IMG/VR virus record: IMGVR_UViG_2713896798_000006
Strand: one strand, 5' to 3'
DNA: 25,620 nucleotides
DNA from: a virus
Lineage: Duplodnaviria; Heunggongvirae; Uroviricota; Caudoviricetes
Below, piece by piece: positions 5,079-16,848 of this stretch. How positions within the stretch are numbered: position 1 is the first letter of the stretch; each line of letters opens with the position of its first letter. The notes beneath the pieces are model-generated. The model saw only the letters and a program-made list of their open reading frames with translations. It made no database searches and was not told the origin of the DNA. The position numbers were made by a program, and so were the translations under genes.

Positions 5079-5136
5079 AAAAAGGGCGGCAGAGCAGCCA
5101 CGGAGTAAAACTGATACCGCCAAACGTCACCAGAAA
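5079..5136 (-). ncRNA. dicF: DicF small RNA (ftsZ-targeting sRNA of the dicB operon)
   Basis: Reverse complement of 5084..5136 reads TTTCTGGTGACGTTTGGCGGTATCAGTTTTACTCCGTGGCTGCTCTGCCGCCC followed by TTTTT, matching the ~53-nt DicF sequence as I recall it; lies about 175 nt upstream of dicB. Confidence 0.8.
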
Positions 5137-7529: not shown

Positions 7530-8006
7530 TTAAGTTCCTGTCTTGGTGATGTTCTGGCTTTTCCGTTTTGATTCTTGATTTTTCAGATAGTTAGCTACCT
7601 TCATTTCCATTGCGGCAATGTAGGCGCGAACGTCATGATCAACCCAACTAGGCTCCGTAGCATTTCCAGATAAGATGAAAGCCACAATTGCTCTTTTTTC
7701 ATCAGAGGCGGCTTGATAAAGGCTGTTTATGTCTAAAAGTTCACTTTTTGTATCTGAAGTGGATGGGGTTGGTATGGGGTATTCGTTAAGCCCCCAATGC
7801 TCTGGACCAACCACATCAGAAAAGAAACGCCATAGTTCTGGAAGTTTGTCTTTACTTATCGAACCTTTCTTAATCCAGTCATGGATTGATGGTGGTTGGA
7901 CTTTGAAATGACGTGCGATTTCCGCCTTTGATTTGACGGCTCCTGATGCAATTTTTTTGTTAATGGCCTGCTCTATCGCTCGGCCTAAGTCTTTACCACT
8001 AAGCAT
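7530..8006 (-). CDS. Prophage repressor, HTH DNA-binding protein (158 aa; RacR-like by size and context)
   Basis: N-terminal HTH-like segment SKAEIARHFKVQPPSIHDWIKKG; flanked on both sides by operator palindromes; divergent from a Cro-position gene. Confidence 0.65.
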   Translation of the reverse strand: MLSGKDLGRAIEQAINKKIASGAVKSKAEIARHFKVQPPSIHDWIKKGSISKDKLPELWRFFSDVVGPEHWGLNEYPIPTPSTSDTKSELLDINSLYQAASDEKRAIVAFILSGNATEPSWVDHDVRAYIAAMEMKVANYLKNQESKRKSQNITKTGT

Positions 8007-8034: not shown

Positions 8035-8103
8035 TTAGGCAATCCCTACTCTCGATGTATTAGGCATAGCCTATTGACAATTTCATTAGGCTAAGCCTAA
8101 TAT
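8035..8103 (+). promoter_or_regulatory. Rightward PR-like promoter with operator sites
   Basis: TTGACA (8074..8079), 18-bp spacer, TAATAT (8098..8103); palindromes TAGGCATAGCCTA (8061..8073) and TTAGGCTAAGCCTAA (8087..8101) plus half-site TTAGGC (8035..8040). Confidence 0.55.
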
Positions 8104-8130: not shown

Positions 8131-8454
8131 ATGAAAAAAGATAACTATTCATTCAAACGAGCTTGTGCTGTTGTCGGTGGGCAATCAGCAATGGCTAGGC
8201 TTTTAGGTGTATCTCCTCCAAGCGTAAATCAATGGATCAAAGGTGTACGTCAGTTACCTGCTGAGAGATGTCCTGCGATTGAACGAGCAACAAAAGGTGG
8301 TGTTCTGTGTGAAGAACTTCGTCCTGATGTTGATTGGACATACTTACGACGCTCGTCATGTTATTCGCAGAATATGTCGATGAAGCAACCAAATGACGAA
8401 AACGATCATACCCGAAGCATCAAGAGGCAAATGATTCATGAAAATCAAACATGA
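8131..8454 (+). CDS. Cro-position HTH protein, YdaS-like
   Basis: ATG at 8131 preceded by GGAG; sequence MKKDNYSFKRACAVVGGQSAMARLLGVSPPSVNQWIKGVRQLPAERCPAIERATKG resembles Rac YdaS; the track start at 8110 is a GTG. Confidence 0.6.
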   Translation: MKKDNYSFKRACAVVGGQSAMARLLGVSPPSVNQWIKGVRQLPAERCPAIERATKGGVLCEELRPDVDWTYLRRSSCYSQNMSMKQPNDENDHTRSIKRQMIHENQT

Positions 8455-8863
8455 GCACATCCGCATGGCGATGAATGCCTGGGCATACCCTGATGGTGAG
8501 AAAGTTCCTGCAGCTGAAATAGCCCGGACTTATTTCGAACTGGGGATGACGTTCCCTGAACTGTACGACGACAGCCATCCGGAAGCCCTGGCCCGTAATA
8601 CCCAGAAAATTTTCCGTTGGCTGGATAAAGACACCCCTGATGCTGTTGAAAAAATGCAGGCTCTGTTACCGGCGATCGAAAAGGCGATGCCGCCTTTGCT
8701 GGTGGCCCGTATGCGCAGCCACAGTTCTGAATATTACCGTGAGATCGTCGAACGGAGGGATCGGCTGGTGAAGGATGTCGATGATTTTGTTGCGTCAGCG
8801 GTTGTTTTGTATGACCAGATGAATCGCGGCGGCCCGGCAGGGAATGCTGTGGTGATGCACTAA
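8438..8863 (+). CDS. YdaT-like protein (141 aa)
   Basis: Overlaps the end of the YdaS-like gene; size and context match Rac YdaT (140 aa). Confidence 0.55.
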   Translation: MKIKHEHIRMAMNAWAYPDGEKVPAAEIARTYFELGMTFPELYDDSHPEALARNTQKIFRWLDKDTPDAVEKMQALLPAIEKAMPPLLVARMRSHSSEYYREIVERRDRLVKDVDDFVASAVVLYDQMNRGGPAGNAVVMH

Positions 8864-8870
8864 AAGCACG

Positions 8871-9848
8871 GTGTTCGGGGGTTTTATGAGCAGCAAGCTT
8901 CATGGTCTTGTCTGGGAAGGGTGCGCCTTCACCGGCATGATCTTATCCAGGGTGGCGGTTATGGCCCGTCTTGCAGACTACAGCAATGACGAGGGCGTGT
9001 CATGGCCTGCCATTGAAACTATCCGGCGTCAGATCGGTGCAAGAAGTGAATCCACAGTGAAATCGGCTATTGCAGAACTGGCGAAAGAGGGCTGGCTGAC
9101 GAAGGAAGAGCGTAAGGTCGGTGGGCGTAATGTAAGCAATATCTATCGGCTTAATGTGGAAAAACTCGAAGCAGCTGCGGCGGCGGCGCGTGAGTCATAT
9201 AAACCGAAAAGAAAAATTAGCCCGGCAAAAAATGACCCGTTAACAGTTGACCCGTCAAATATTGACCCCTCAACGGTTGACCCGTCAAATTTTGATGGAT
9301 CAACTGTTGATAAAAAACTGCCGATTAGGGGGGCGATGATTGACCCCGATCCGTCAGTATTAAAACCTGATCCGTCAGATAAAAGATCTTCTTGTCCGGA
9401 CGCTTCGCAACCGGACCCGCAGACGGCTGAACAGGATTTTTTAACCCGACACCCTGACGCGGTTGTGTTCAGTGCGAAAAAACGCCAGTGGGGAAGTCAG
9501 GAAGATTTGGTGTGCGCACAGTGGATCTGGGGACGAATCGTGAGTCTTTACGAGCAGGCGGCCAGCGATGATGGCGAGATCACTAGACCGAAAGAACCCA
9601 ACTGGACAGCATGGGCCAATGACGTTCGCACAATGCGGATGCTGGATGGCAGAACTCACAGACAAATTTGTGAAATGTTTGGGCGTCTCCAGCGGGATTC
9701 GTTCTGGGTAAAAAACATCATGAGTCCGGCAAAACTCCGGGAAAAATGGGATGAACTGGTTATCCGCCTGGGGCGTTCGCCTGCGCAGCGTTGCGTGAAT
9801 CACATTTCTGAACCGGACACTGAAATACCGCCGGGATTCAGGGGGTGA
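8871..9848 (+). CDS. Replication initiator (lambda O-like) containing the iteron array; start may be at 8886 (MSSKLHG)
   Basis: N-terminal wHTH-like region; internal 15-bp-period iterons encoding DPLTVDPSNIDPSTVDPSNFDGSTVD; immediately followed by a DnaC-like gene. Confidence 0.7.
   Translation: MFGGFMSSKLHGLVWEGCAFTGMILSRVAVMARLADYSNDEGVSWPAIETIRRQIGARSESTVKSAIAELAKEGWLTKEERKVGGRNVSNIYRLNVEKLEAAAAAARESYKPKRKISPAKNDPLTVDPSNIDPSTVDPSNFDGSTVDKKLPIRGAMIDPDPSVLKPDPSDKRSSCPDASQPDPQTAEQDFLTRHPDAVVFSAKKRQWGSQEDLVCAQWIWGRIVSLYEQAASDDGEITRPKEPNWTAWANDVRTMRMLDGRTHRQICEMFGRLQRDSFWVKNIMSPAKLREKWDELVIRLGRSPAQRCVNHISEPDTEIPPGFRG
9232..9303. repeat. Putative replication origin iterons: five 12-bp near-palindromic repeats at 15-bp spacing
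   Basis: ATGACCCGTTAA, TTGACCCGTCAA, TTGACCCCTCAA, TTGACCCGTCAA, TTGATGGATCAA starting at 9232, 9247, 9262, 9277, 9292; degenerate copies at about 9338 and 9367. Confidence 0.6.
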
Positions 9849-9854
9849 CGTGTC

Positions 9855-10595
9855 ATGAAAAACATTGCGGCAGTTGGGGTTCTTGAACGTATTCGCAGAC
9901 TTGCACCACAGGGGGCGGTTCCACCGTACCGGACGGTGGAGGAGTGGCGGGAATGGCAACTTGCTGAAGGACGAAAACGCAGCGAGGAGATTAACCGCCT
10001 GAATCATCAGGTGCGGGTTGAAAAAATCCTGAACCGTGCGGGCATCCAGCCGCTTCACAGGAAGTGCTCATTCGGGAACTACCGGGTGCAGAACGACGGT
10101 CAGCGCCATGCTCTGAGCCAGGCGAAATCCATTGCCGATGAATTGATGACCGGATGTACAAACTTCGTGTTCAGCGGTAAACCTGGTACCGGTAAAAATC
10201 ACCTGGCAGCAGCGATTGGCAATCGGCTGATGGCGAAGGGGAGAAGCGTGATTATCGTCACCGTGTCCGATGTCATGAGCGTGTTGCATGACGGCTACGA
10301 CAACGGCCAGTCCGGGGAAAAATTTTTACAGGAGCTTTGTGGAGTTGACCTTCTGGTCCTTGATGAAATTGGCATGCAGCGGGATACGCGCAACGAGCAG
10401 GTCACGCTGAACCAGATAGTCGACCGCAGAACGGCTTCGATGCGTAGTGTCGGAATGCTGACGAACCTGAATCACGCAGCGATGAGCACACTCCTCGGAG
10501 ATCGGGTGATGGACCGTATGACCATGAATGGTGGTCGTTGGGTGAATTTTAACTGGGAGAGCTGGCGGTCAAACGTTGGACGTCAGGGTATGTGA
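9855..10595 (+). CDS. DnaC-like helicase loader (AAA+ ATPase, IstB/DnaC family)
   Basis: Walker A GKPGTGKNHLAAAIG and Walker B LLVLDEIG; 246 aa; downstream of the O-like gene. Confidence 0.85.
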   Translation: MKNIAAVGVLERIRRLAPQGAVPPYRTVEEWREWQLAEGRKRSEEINRLNHQVRVEKILNRAGIQPLHRKCSFGNYRVQNDGQRHALSQAKSIADELMTGCTNFVFSGKPGTGKNHLAAAIGNRLMAKGRSVIIVTVSDVMSVLHDGYDNGQSGEKFLQELCGVDLLVLDEIGMQRDTRNEQVTLNQIVDRRTASMRSVGMLTNLNHAAMSTLLGDRVMDRMTMNGGRWVNFNWESWRSNVGRQGM

Positions 10596-12693: not shown

Positions 12694-12908
12694 GGTAAAA
12701 ACGGTTTGCGGTAAAGCGAGAGTTAAGTAGAATTGCTGCGGGTGCTTGAGGCTGTCTGCCTCGGGCATGCCACCGTAAGGCAGACAGAGAAAAGCCCCAG
12801 TTAACATTACGCGTCCTGCAAGACGCCTAACATTAATCTGAGGCCAATTTCATGCTAGACATATGTAGGTTAGCCTCTTACGCGCCGAAAGGCAAGGAGA
12901 AGCAGGCT

Positions 12909-13064
12909 ATGAAGCAGCAAAAGGCGATGTTAATCGCCCTGATCGTCATCTGTATCACCGTCATAGTGACGGCACTGGTAACGAGGAAAGACCTCTGCGA
13001 GGTACGAATCCGAACCGGCCAGACGGAGGTCGCTGTCTTCACAGCTTACGAACCTGAGGAGTAA
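12909..13064 (+). CDS. hokD: Hok/Gef family type I toxin (51 aa)
   Basis: MKQQKAMLIALIVICITVIVTALVTRKDLCEVRIRTGQTEVAVFTAYEPEE is essentially K-12 HokD as I recall it; followed by a terminator; the track ORF extends upstream in frame from 12852. Confidence 0.85.
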   Translation: MKQQKAMLIALIVICITVIVTALVTRKDLCEVRIRTGQTEVAVFTAYEPEE

Positions 13065-16530: not shown

Positions 16531-16695
16531 TTTTTTTGTTTACTGTTTATTAAAAATACTACTGCATGGTGAATCCCCCTGTGCGGAGGGGCAATCAGCA
16601 ACCAGGTATATGTGATAATCGCGGATTCAGGTGCTGATACTGAATTCACCGGGAGGCACCCGGCACCATGCAAGAAAAAGAATGTGCATGCAAAC

Positions 16696-16723
16696 ATGCC
16701 CCTCTCCTGAGGGGCATTTTTAT
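16696..16723 (+). terminator. Rho-independent terminator (plus strand)
   Basis: 9-bp stem ATGCCCCTC/GAGGGGCAT, loop tcct, then ttttta. Confidence 0.55.
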
Positions 16724-16724
16724 G

Positions 16725-16752
16725 GGTAAAAAATGCCCGAATGGGTTCGGGC
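16725..16752 (-). terminator. Rho-independent terminator (minus strand), back to back with the plus-strand one
   Basis: Stem gcccgaa/ttcgggc with loop tggg; on the minus strand it is followed by the U-run complementary to ggtaaaaaat. Confidence 0.4.
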
Positions 16753-16848
16753 AATAGCATGAGATACTGATATTGTTGTGTTGTTATCGTGTGGATTTTA
16801 ACCAGGGTTTATCAGGCTGCGCAACTGCGTGGCCTTTTTTCATTTCTT

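Follow-up and report, generated by a model that had tools for sequence, protein, structure and literature searches.

A 15-bp array of dyad repeats within an initiator gene as the probable replication origin of a Rac-like lambdoid prophage

Examination of the 25.6-kb window (i.e., the whole stretch of DNA analyzed here) revealed an O-like initiator gene (8886-9848, plus strand) containing an array of short repeats at 15-bp intervals. These repeats would act in cis as iterons, such that the segment of the gene in which they lie would correspond to the replication origin of a Rac-like lambdoid prophage, a reading to which a probability of roughly three in four is assigned. As judged by comparison of 81 diverged relatives, the array is kept as DNA rather than as protein, and is therefore most likely a phage replication origin. 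That the origin lies within the initiator gene, as in lambdoid phages, had been proposed in an earlier, sequence-only reading, and is supported by the position of the repeats in a linker-coding segment, by their conservation as DNA across these relatives and by their linkage to the N-terminal domain of the initiator. Indeed, each prediction of the iteron/origin reading amenable to in silico testing came out as expected, lending support to that reading.

Direct reading of the sequence revealed five near-palindromes of 12 bp, of the TTGACCCGTCAA type, starting at positions 9232, 9247, 9262, 9277 and 9292, with the distance from one start to the next being exactly 15 bp. Tandem Repeats Finder identified the region spanning 9212-9310 with a period of 15 (5 copies) and a period of 30 (84% matches, score 101), while a separate repeat search returned the same 15-bp register. 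Besides 9212-9310, Tandem Repeats Finder detected no second multi-copy array in the 25.6-kb window. When matches to TTGACCCGTCAA with no more than two mismatches were counted, nine were found in the window, as compared to 2.0 expected, with seven lying within the array and only two stray matches being found elsewhere in the 25.6 kb. None of 100 shuffled versions reached nine such matches. The array is real and non-random, and the earlier description of five near-palindromic 12-bp repeats at an exact 15-bp spacing was confirmed by the sequence itself, by Tandem Repeats Finder and by the motif count.

Iteron 1 (ATGACCCGTTAA; 9232-9243) shows two mismatches to the consensus and is missing in some E. 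coli alleles. Iteron 2 (9247-9258) reads TTGACCCGTCAA, with half-sites TTGAC and GTCAA flanking a CC center, as does iteron 4 (9277-9288), assigned, like iteron 3 (TTGACCCCTCAA; 9262-9273), from the sequence and the motif match. The iteron 3 12-mer and its reverse complement, TTGAGGGGTCAA, serve as units in relatives from Edwardsiella, Erwinia, Mixta and Morganella. Iteron 5 (TTGATGGATCAA; 9292-9303) is a perfect dyad (TTGAT/ATCAA) that contains GATC and fits the consensus when read on the minus strand, i.e., it is an inverted copy. A degenerate sixth unit (TTGATAAAAAAC; 9307-9318) follows in register and retains the left half-site only. Further downstream, two distal sites, each containing GATC, are found 21 bp apart at 9346-9357 (CCGATCCGTCAG, with a TTGAC half-site ahead of it at 9340) and 9367-9378 (CTGATCCGTCAG). 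The sequence-only reading had noted degenerate copies downstream of the array, as was indeed found at 9307, 9346 and 9367. Relatives retain paired sites of the GATCCGTCAG type at a spacing of 21-24 bp. All of the repeats, proximal and distal alike, lie within the initiator gene (ORF 8871/8886-9848), and in-frame translation of the array yields DPLTV DPSNI DPSTV DPSNF DGSTV, in agreement with the earlier claim of repeats inside an O-like ORF that encode a repeated DPxTV/DPSN-type peptide. The TTGAC motifs were also considered as promoter elements, an assignment that was rejected, with no sigma-70-like promoter being predicted in the array.

Conservation was considered at the codon level in a set of 252 D-x-S units, each lying exactly five residues from another, drawn from 81 genes of many Enterobacterales. 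The serine in D-x-S is encoded by TCA in 226 of the 252 units and by TCG in the other 26, whereas the serine preceding Asp is encoded by TCT in 179 of 198 cases and by TCC in the other 19; no other serine codons were used at either position. Lysine in the units is always encoded by AAA (190/190), asparagine by AAT (28/28) and glutamate by GAA (23/23). The residue before Asp is variable (S, F, P, T, I, V or Y), but the third base of its codon is T in 219 of 252 units. Overall, TCA accounts for 90% of the serines in the units, as opposed to 21% of those in the remainder of these genes (Fisher p 5e-178, with relatives counted as independent). By contrast, invariant serine columns in the N-terminal domains encoded by the same genes, serving as control, use two to six codons, the commonest accounting for 32-77%. 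Because these control columns vary in codon, synonymous sites at such divergence are otherwise randomized. Kinship among the sequences is addressed by this internal control only, since the codon statistics treat relatives as independent.

A position matrix of the units revealed the two positions at the dyad center to be the least conserved (0.4-0.6 bit), with the flanks scoring at least 1.1 bits regardless of codon position and with the specific bases TGAC and GTCA being conserved. Within the half-sites, the inner bases co-vary in a symmetric manner, with 141 symmetric pairs being counted vs. 118 expected (chi-square 62). In close relatives, TTGACCCCTCAA (encoding DPS) and its reverse complement TTGAGGGGTCAA (encoding EGS) are both found as units of one array, and in Morganella, both full units are inverted. 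From such comparisons, the site appears to work in either orientation. Some E. coli alleles carry substitutions within half-sites, e.g., TTGCCCCCTCAA and TTGGCCCGTCAA.

The initiator gene starts at ATG 8886 according to RefSeq, where its product is named 'helix-turn-helix domain-containing protein', and at GTG 8871 when the longest ORF is considered; the annotation was that of a genome showing 100% identity across a 530-base query. Residues 1-104 (8886-9197, plus strand) form a winged-helix domain assigned to Pfam HTH_36 (PF13730; E 2e-6), with the AlphaFold2 model (pLDDT 70-89) presenting a helix/helix/helix/helix/two-strand wing topology. This domain is presumed to be the iteron-binding module. 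Its best fold matches in the PDB, dimeric MarR/ArsR/PadR-type regulators with weak E-values (1e-3 to 1e-2), are generic winged-helix regulators that speak only to fold class, and were set aside as functional evidence. Residues 109-176 (9210-9413, plus strand) comprise a predicted disordered linker (pLDDT <50), within which every repeat lies. The folded C-terminal domain that follows (residues 181-297; 9426-9776, plus strand) is homologous to the C-terminal domains of lambda O and phi80 gp15, with the C-terminal part of the protein sharing 35% identity with lambda O (aa 158-305; E 1e-18 by tblastn) and 36% identity with phi80 gp15 (E 5e-26 by BLASTP). This domain presumably contacts the helicase-loading machinery. 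The protein ends in a disordered tail (...VNHISEPDTEIPPGFRG; 9777-9845, plus strand) that resembles the tail of DnaT, as reflected in matches to 2ru8, 6aep and 9zbt in a PDB sequence search. The same DnaT-like tail is found at the end of the otherwise unrelated K-12 YdaU, and such a tail is present on three unrelated initiator types.

As seen from their distribution, the N-terminal domain and the array comprise a single module, with the C-terminal domain being swapped. The two are found in combination with no fewer than three distinct C-terminal regions and also co-segregate in SKA5 and Eeyore, phages without the neighboring DUF1627 and DnaC-like genes, while DNA similarity to phage mEp460 starts at about 9381, immediately downstream of the last site. 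Copy number changes in whole 15-bp units, ranging from two to five among E. coli alleles, with between-unit deletions being seen in P0023, P0013 and P0016, for example. Iteron number varies likewise in other phages, with four in lambda and six in Stx phages (PMC7466680). As the 15-bp period corresponds to five codons, gain, loss or inversion of whole units leaves the reading frame intact, and the protein tolerates the repeats because the segment encodes a disordered inter-domain linker. Of 5426 complete E. coli genomes, 1521 were found to contain the initiator allele, among them those of O157:H7, O111:H8 and ATCC 25922, the last with 99.8% identity. Related alleles are found across Enterobacterales. 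A 15,977-bp circular "plasmid" (NZ_CP148542.1) comprises no more than the early region, with the initiator-array module in it, and contains no typed replicon, thus assuming a lambda-dv-like appearance. Given the frameshifts in its initiator and ydaT genes, this entry was not counted as a natural mini-replicon and may be an assembly artefact.

A moderately AT-rich patch (9350-9389; GC 0.375) lies over the distal sites and represents a candidate unwinding region, in alignment with the AT-rich stretches of both ori-lambda and ori-phi80. When a strong AT-rich unwinding element was sought in the gene on the basis of composition, none was found beyond this modest patch, with the lowest GC content over 40 bp being 0.325 in the initiator gene and 0.375 over the distal sites, as compared to 0.20 in lambda O. 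In most relatives, the 40 bp of lowest GC content in the gene fall at the distal sites (median GC 0.30). GATC sequences at 9298, 9348, 9369 and 9385, i.e., four within 87 bp, constitute the tightest cluster of four such sites in the window.

Downstream of the initiator gene lies a gene (9855-10595, plus strand) encoding a DnaC/IstB-type ATPase (Pfam IstB_IS21, E 1.5e-19), the ortholog of Rac YdaV, with its product sharing 79% identity with K-12 YdaV (BLASTP). This ATPase is presumed to be the helicase loader. The upstream region contains racR (7530-8006, minus strand), as annotated in an E. coli genome that shows no difference from the window over the compared segment, as well as ydaS-like (8131-8454) and ydaT-like (8438-8863) genes with matches to Pfam YdaS_toxin and YdaT_toxin, respectively. 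Promoter prediction returned a single hit, namely, a pR-like promoter at 8074-8103 on the plus strand (TTGACA, 18-nt spacer, TAATAT), which would drive a ydaS-ydaT-initiator-loader operon, with transcription passing through the array.

In the mechanism envisaged, derepression would lead to transcription from pR and so to the initiator being made. The N-terminal winged helix, probably as a dimer, would recognize the dyad 12-mers (TTGAC-SS-GTCAA, or TGAC-NN-GTCA in the wider family). Several copies of the initiator would then bind cooperatively to the five to six proximal and two distal sites, generating an O-some-like complex that would destabilize the adjoining moderately AT-rich, GATC-containing region at ~9350-9390. 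Finally, the C-terminal domain, together with the DnaT-like tail, would recruit DnaB via the phage YdaV/DnaC-type loader. What the sequences show are the repeats themselves, their constraint as nucleotides, their dyad symmetry, their linkage to the N-terminal domain and a position collinear with ori-lambda, whereas we infer binding by the initiator's own N-terminal domain, as well as the unwinding site, helicase recruitment and origin activity. Certain considerations speak against assigning the array as an origin. A center-to-center spacing of 15 bp (~1.4 helical turns) is far tighter than in characterized iteron origins and leaves but 3 bp between 12-bp sites, such that it cannot be taken for granted that winged-helix dimers would occupy adjacent sites at once. 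Likewise counted against the origin reading were the weak AT-rich element, the half-site substitutions in E. coli alleles and the weak fold matches of the N-terminal domain.

It is also conceivable, if rather doubtful, that the array represents a distinct class of phage origin, combining orientation-independent 12-bp dyads every 15 bp, a filament of the HTH_36 initiator and direct docking on DnaB-DnaC of the tail, acting as a mimic of the extreme C-terminus of host DnaT. Such origins would be widespread in Enterobacterales prophages, where they would never have been annotated, and the initiator would coat the DNA as a continuous filament, unlike the spaced dimers of lambda-like origins. Were this true, tail docking would explain the loader-less replication of 'O-only' lambdoid phages and would point to the contact of DnaT with DnaB/DnaC.

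Constraint at the DNA level and linkage to the N-terminal domain would be equally expected were the initiator to bind these sites for the purposes of autoregulation, titration, copy control or as an operon roadblock, with the unwinding site and origin lying elsewhere. Some plasmid iterons serve in autoregulation, titration or copy control, and the lack of a strong AT-rich element adjoining the array would fit such a role. Still, this explanation, which survives better than the other alternatives, is unlikely, given how no other array or iteron-like motif, apart from the two stray matches, is found in the window, how the position of the array corresponds exactly to that of the lambda ori, as defined by experiment, and to that of the gp15-binding sites annotated in phi80, and how the most AT-rich 40 bp of the gene are reproducibly found at the distal sites.

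Recognition by a component other than the initiator, be it the DUF1627 or YdaS/YdaT products or host SeqA/Dam acting at GATC, or else a role for the array as an mRNA hairpin affecting translation or decay, is less probable still. What is conserved in the units are the specific bases TGAC/GTCA, beyond what complementarity alone would call for, even if the array, as single-stranded DNA, can be folded into a long imperfect hairpin (-24.9 kcal/mol, z = -4.0). A known RNA element was rejected, as no Rfam family was found over the repeat region. Despite the presence of four GATC sites within 87 bp, among the repeats GATC is found solely in the distal sites and in a single inverted unit. Finally, the link between the N-terminal domain and the sites, drawn from co-occurrence, would be an indirect one, yet the array and the HTH_36 domain co-segregate across genomic contexts and C-terminal domains, SKA5 and Eeyore included.

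The in-frame position of the array and its period, a multiple of three, together with a five-residue peptide repeat recognizable in all relatives, could be taken to reflect a coding tandem repeat only, namely, a flexible hydrophilic linker (D-P-S-N/S-D-A-S-K) selected as protein and having no DNA function. The segment is, moreover, predicted to be disordered, and disordered, repeat-rich linkers are common. Such an explanation, named in the sequence-only reading as the one that would overturn it, was not upheld and, on the comparative evidence, appears to be already largely refuted; its probability is very low. Synonymous positions, randomized in the N-domain control columns, are near-fixed in the array, and differently so for each serine (TCA vs. 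TCT), while the amino acids vary; inverted units preserve the DNA site at the cost of changing DPS to EGS; and constraint is weakest at the dyad center rather than at third codon positions. Equally improbable is that the array serves mainly as a recombination substrate, i.e., a junction for the shuffling of N- and C-terminal initiator modules with the repeats as by-product, since, although modules meet where the repeats end on their 3' side and between-unit deletions are seen among alleles, recombination needs similarity and not a dyad motif fixed across genera and usable in either orientation, while a specificity module would just as well lead one to expect junctions at ori, lambda and phi80 serving as precedent.

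Assigning the array as an origin is of significance for a gene annotated merely as "helix-turn-helix domain-containing protein", with no origin being marked. The site at which replication starts matters for the reading of read-depth peaks after induction and bears on in situ amplification and lateral transduction, while also helping to predict the replication incompatibility of co-resident prophages and to construct mini-replicons. The array further offers a clean natural case of two overlapping codes in one stretch of DNA, of which the cis-acting code visibly dominates, because codon choice is fixed and inversion of units is seen despite the change in peptide. The DnaT-like tail shared by three unrelated initiator types, in turn, provides a concrete handle on helicase recruitment. 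Full-text literature searches, conducted with iteron sequences and with the terms iteron, prophage and DnaC, returned nothing on the HTH_36 initiator family, including its binding, unwinding or replication, and neither iterons nor a replication origin is mentioned in the Eru papers, which deal with the replication regions of Stx phages.

Theta plasmids, such as pSC101, R6K, P1 and F, rely on winged-helix initiators of the RepA/Pi type and direct-repeat arrays, with P1 also presenting GATC sites near its unwinding region. Plasmid iterons are typically 17-22 bp long, are bound by monomers, lie about two helical turns (~21-22 bp) apart and are positioned outside of the rep gene. By contrast, the window contains 12-bp dyads at a 15-bp spacing inside the gene, and departs in this from the plasmid type.

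The Rac prophage of K-12 (racR-ydaS-ydaT-ydaU-ydaV; oriJ) has the regulatory and loader genes in common with the window. Its YdaU, however, is a DUF1376 protein with similarity to the window initiator limited to the last 19 residues (BLASTP), and ydaU is without the 15-bp array, containing instead its own 14-nt repeats at a 33-bp spacing. With a non-homologous initiator and different repeats, oriRac was rejected as a model for the array, and oriJ, whatever its nature, is a different sequence. Hence, of the two origins earlier put forward for comparison, ori-lambda presents the same order and a homologous C-terminal domain, whereas the Rac initiator of K-12, YdaU, is unrelated.

The O gene of mEp460 encodes nearly the same C-terminal domain and tail (86.6% DNA identity from 9381 on) and carries an iteron array at the same position. 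In this case, however, the N-terminal domain is unrelated and without a Pfam match, the five iterons are of other sequence, spaced by 23-24 bp and not codon-phased, and no loader gene lies downstream. Modules of the mEp460 type are 'O-only' replication modules (PMC12315714).

Systems grouped with ori-lambda include Stx phages 933W and P27 and phi80 gene 15 (repeat numbers: PMC7466680). Both lambda and phi80 place the repeats in the linker-coding segment, between the DNA-binding N-terminal domain and the C-terminal domain, the latter making contact with the helicase-loading protein. In the window, homology to the C-terminal domain of lambda O begins directly after the repeats, in the same order as in ori-lambda, while the annotated gp15-binding sites of phi80 occupy a position equivalent to that of the array. 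As in a lambda-type origin, which contains several direct repeats with internal dyad symmetry, five to six proximal and two distal sites are found, and the N-terminal domain and iterons together behave as a specificity module. There are also differences. The N-terminal domains of lambda O and phi80 gp15 belong to Phage_rep_O (PF04492; E 6e-36 and 6e-25, respectively), whereas the window protein matches HTH_36 (PF13730) only. The iterons are 12 bp long at 15-bp intervals, as opposed to ~19-20 bp with spacings of 20, 24 and 23 bp for lambda and a spacing of 21 bp for phi80. As such, the earlier remark that the 15-bp period differs from that of lambda stands, with the correction that ~19 bp is the length of the lambda unit and not its period. 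Unlike in lambda, the period is codon-phased, giving rise to a peptide repeat, and units are found in both orientations. The AT-rich tract, with GC 0.33-0.38 vs. 0.20 in lambda, is a weak one, the loader is of the DnaC/YdaV type rather than lambda P, and the DnaT-like C-terminal tail of the initiator sets it apart from the lambda type. Identity with ori-phi80, as might be implied by a Pantoea homolog being called "Replication protein 15", was rejected, given the PF04492 N-terminal domain and 21-bp iterons of phi80, with the C-terminal domain alone being common. The array is thus not a lambda-family origin, in that its DNA-binding domain, its 12-bp iterons at 15-bp spacing and its loader all differ.

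Reading of the region 9232-9380, within the O-like initiator gene (8886-9848, + strand, from the RefSeq start; GTG 8871 begins the longest ORF), revealed five proximal 12-mers with a start-to-start distance of exactly 15 bp, namely, ATGACCCGTTAA at 9232, TTGACCCGTCAA at both 9247 and 9277, TTGACCCCTCAA at 9262 and TTGATGGATCAA at 9292, the last fitting the consensus on the opposite strand. Each unit takes the form of the dyad TTGAC-CC-GTCAA. These are followed by a sixth, half-degenerate unit (TTGATAAAAAAC, 9307) and by two related distal sites 21 bp apart, CCGATCCGTCAG at 9346 and CTGATCCGTCAG at 9367. Tandem Repeats Finder reported periods of 15 (5 copies) and 30 (84% matches) for what is the sole multi-copy array of the 25.6-kb window, and a second repeat search returned the identical register. 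When the consensus was sought with up to two mismatches, nine matches were obtained in the window (2.0 expected), seven of them within the array; nine matches were reached in 0/100 shuffles. In frame, the array is translated as DPLTV-DPSNI-DPSTV-DPSNF-DGSTV. As such, the sequence-only reading of five 12-bp near-palindromes at 15-bp spacing with degenerate copies downstream, lying in frame inside an O-like ORF and yielding a five-residue peptide repeat, was borne out by the sequence, by Tandem Repeats Finder and by translation of the ORF. A promoter search of the window predicted none within the array, and an Rfam search returned no family over it. Positions 9242-9308 also form an imperfect inverted repeat with 33-nt arms and, as single-stranded DNA, the array would fold into a long hairpin (-24.9 kcal/mol, z = -4.0). 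Because the units are tandem dyads, such cruciform/hairpin potential, also discussed for the lambda iterons, is an automatic outcome, and no separate function is assigned to it.

The N-terminal part of the initiator matches Pfam HTH_36, and residues 158-305 (counted from GTG 8871) share 35% identity with the C-terminal part of lambda O (tblastn E 1e-18); the C-terminal part also shares 36% identity with phi80 gp15. AlphaFold2 modelled a winged-helix N-domain (residues 1-104), assigned with weak scores to a fold class common to dimeric MarR/ArsR/PadR regulators, a folded C-domain (181-297) and then a disordered tail. Residues 109-176, encoded by 9210-9413, were given pLDDT values below 50, such that the repeats are predicted to lie wholly within a disordered inter-domain linker; ori-lambda likewise occupies the inter-domain linker of O (PMC7466680). 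The next gene (9855-10595, + strand) encodes an IstB/DnaC-type ATPase 79% identical to Rac YdaV, and upstream of the initiator gene lie YdaS-like and YdaT-like genes, the racR repressor gene in the opposite orientation, and a promoter resembling pR (8074-8103). A single perfect dyad of the family core type TGAC-NN-GTCA, TGACGTGTCA (9846-9855), overlaps the initiator stop codon, its last base being the first of the loader start codon (9855); this may be a chance occurrence. With window positions 8871-9400 as query (the initial 530 bases of the ORF, spanning the array and the gene's N-terminal half), 1521 complete E. coli genomes out of 5426 gave a match of at least 80% identity; the annotation there is solely "helix-turn-helix domain-containing protein".

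That the array is only a coding repeat, the refutation named in the sequence-only reading, was considered in 80 loci from different Enterobacterales species, collected via an N-domain profile, with phage relatives added. Almost all relatives contain a 5-residue/15-bp repeat at the same place, the usual peptide being S-D-[APTG]-S-K. Core motif density reaches 13.9 per kb in the linker window vs 1.1 per kb outside it in these genes, and the spacing seen most often, by a wide margin, is 15 bp (181 gaps; next commonest, 42). Where units were set by amino acids alone (D-x-S five residues from another D-x-S; n = 252), the Ser following x is encoded by TCA (226) or TCG (26) and never by the remaining four codons, and the Ser preceding Asp by TCT (179) or TCC (19) and never by TCA, TCG, AGC or AGT. 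Similarly, Lys is AAA in 190/190 cases, Asn is AAT in 28/28 and Glu is GAA in 23/23. The residue before Asp may be S, F, P, T, I, V or Y, yet 219 of the 252 units have T as the third base of its codon. The TCA share is 90% across 440 linker D-x-S tripeptides vs 21% of serines elsewhere in the same genes; as a control for relatedness, Ser columns that are invariant in the N-domains of this set of 81 genes are encoded by two to six codons, the commonest accounting for 32-77%. Information content in the position matrix is lowest (0.4-0.6 bit) at the two positions on either side of the dyad centre, and not at the third codon positions.

At the level of sequence, the most direct evidence on DNA versus peptide is provided by the mixed-orientation arrays of the closest clade (Edwardsiella, Erwinia, Mixta and Morganella; N-domains 74-77% identical to that of the window). 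Here, TTGACCCCTCAA (V/I-D-P-S) is mixed with its exact reverse complement, TTGAGGGGTCAA (V/I/F-E-G-S), with the spacing still being 15 bp; Morganella has two full units, each of them inverted. Inversion changes the peptide from Asp-Pro to Glu-Gly and retains the DNA site. Bases of the inner half-sites, moreover, co-vary symmetrically (141 vs 118 expected, relatedness of the sequences being ignored). Since inversion alters the peptide but preserves the DNA site, and the half-sites co-vary, a purely coding repeat is ruled out, with near-fixed synonymous codons likewise telling against it. As judged from these relatives, the array element is a dyad-symmetric DNA site, independent of orientation, and selection of the repeats as DNA can be considered virtually certain.

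Among E. coli alleles, the array varies by entire units: 2, 3, 4 or 5 proximal copies are present, the proteins being 305, 310, 315 and 320 residues long. In certain alleles, a distal unit of 21 bp is missing or a deletion runs from a proximal to a distal unit. Because the period is five codons, gain or loss of a unit never breaks the frame.

The array is linked to the N-domain as a module, the HTH_36 N-domain and the array jointly occurring with no fewer than three distinct C-terminal regions, among them a lambda-O-like domain and Phg_2220_C (phage Eeyore). Phage mEp460 has a near-identical C-domain (86.6% DNA identity from window position ~9381, directly 3' of the last site), together with an unrelated N-domain and five iterons of its own at 23-24 bp spacing. 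The N-domain/iteron rule seen in mEp460 and the window gene also holds for lambda (PF04492 N-domain; iterons at 20/24/23 bp) and phi80 (PF04492 N-domain; four gp15-binding sites annotated at 21-bp spacing). The 12-mer subtype also follows the N-domain clade, being gTTGACCCGTCAAat in that of the window and TCTGAC-NCN-TCAAAA in a large clade. Such co-travel is the pattern that would be expected of an origin-specificity module. The mEp460 O gene, with its five linker repeats (L005, the mEp460 record, 1699-1828) and an N-domain without a Pfam match, looks like another unannotated origin-specificity class.

The reading favored here, with a probability of about 0.75, is that the array is an origin bound and fired by its own initiator. 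Transcription from pR would yield the initiator, the winged-helix N-domain of which would bind the dyads cooperatively to form an O-some-like complex across ~150 bp; neighbouring AT-richer, GATC-containing DNA would open, and the C-domain and tail would recruit DnaB via the YdaV/DnaC-type loader. The sequences themselves show the repeats, their constraint as nucleotides, their dyad symmetry and freedom of orientation, the tie to the N-domain and the collinearity with ori-lambda; we infer the identity of the binder, the place of melting and the start of replication at the array. The case is at its weakest for the unwinding element. GC content over 40 bp drops no lower than 0.325 in the gene (0.375 over the distal sites), with lambda O going as low as 0.20. 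For most relatives, the point of lowest GC in the whole gene (median 0.30) lies over the distal pair, ~105 bp past the first unit. When aligned, this distal stretch corresponds to the AT-rich parts of ori-lambda and ori-phi80 and immediately precedes a conserved AAAAGATCTTC...GTCCG joint. The distal stretch is proposed as a candidate unwinding region. Four GATC (Dam) sites (9298, 9348, 9369 and 9385) are packed into 87 bp, closer together than any other four in the window, with two falling inside the distal sites; across the family, ~70% of the non-array linker core matches, mostly distal sites, contain GATC. This clustering could point to Dam/SeqA control of the origin.

The last 21 residues of the initiator resemble the DnaT C-terminal tail, with ...VNHISEPDTEIPPGFRG (9777-9845) matching the extreme C-terminus of host DnaT (PDB 2ru8, 6aep, 9zbt). 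The same tail, also seen at the ends of the L003, L005 and L006 genes, is found in YdaU of K-12 Rac (L092, 4921-4974), an otherwise unrelated DUF1376 initiator, in the mEp460-type O protein and in many Phg_2220_C-type relatives, including those of phages without a loader gene. Such a tail may serve these proteins as a common docking peptide for DnaB/DnaC. Published work describes as not understood both the recruitment of DnaB/DnaC by DnaT (PMC13377028) and the way in which 'O-only' lambdoid phages replicate (PMC12315714).

The same 15-bp array is present in NZ_CP148542.1, a 15,977-bp circular E. coli 'plasmid' consisting solely of the cI-cro-ydaT-initiator-ydaV...Q-lysis prophage part, with no known replicon typed and with frameshifts in the initiator and ydaT; this may be either a natural lambda-dv-like mini-replicon or an assembly artefact. 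Elsewhere in the window, the Rfam hits that pass the gathering score are DicF antisense RNA (5084-5135, -), sok antitoxin RNA (12740-12914, +), adjoining a hok-type gene, STnc100 sRNA (16538-16727, +) and AgvB (anti-GcvB) sRNA (16728-16789, -).

Of the known origins, oriJ of K-12 Rac was rejected as a counterpart, since YdaU is unrelated save for the tail and its repeats differ; the comparison with oriRac suggested in the sequence-only reading thus gave no match. Mid-gene in K-12 ydaU (L092, 4472-4563), four 14-nt AAGCAGATGTTCAA-like copies are spaced at 33, 33 and 12 bp, and are possibly the iterons of oriJ. The lambdoid layout, with the origin inside the initiator gene, is supported by the linker position, the lambda-O-like C-domain and the collinearity of the array with ori-lambda. 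The window element would work like ori-lambda, yet it departs from the lambda family in several respects: its N-domain belongs to a different Pfam family, its loader is of the DnaC type rather than P, its AT-rich tract is weak, and its iterons are 12 bp at 15 bp, as compared to about 19 bp at 20-24 bp. The 15-bp period had been correctly noted as differing from that of lambda, although the ~19 bp given for the latter is the iteron length and not the measured spacing. No description of these 12-bp iterons was found in the literature searched, which omits most older subscription papers. An origin within an O-like gene is what a specialist would expect; what is unusual is the tight, codon-phased and orientation-free packing of the sites, together with the strength of the evidence for two superimposed codes.
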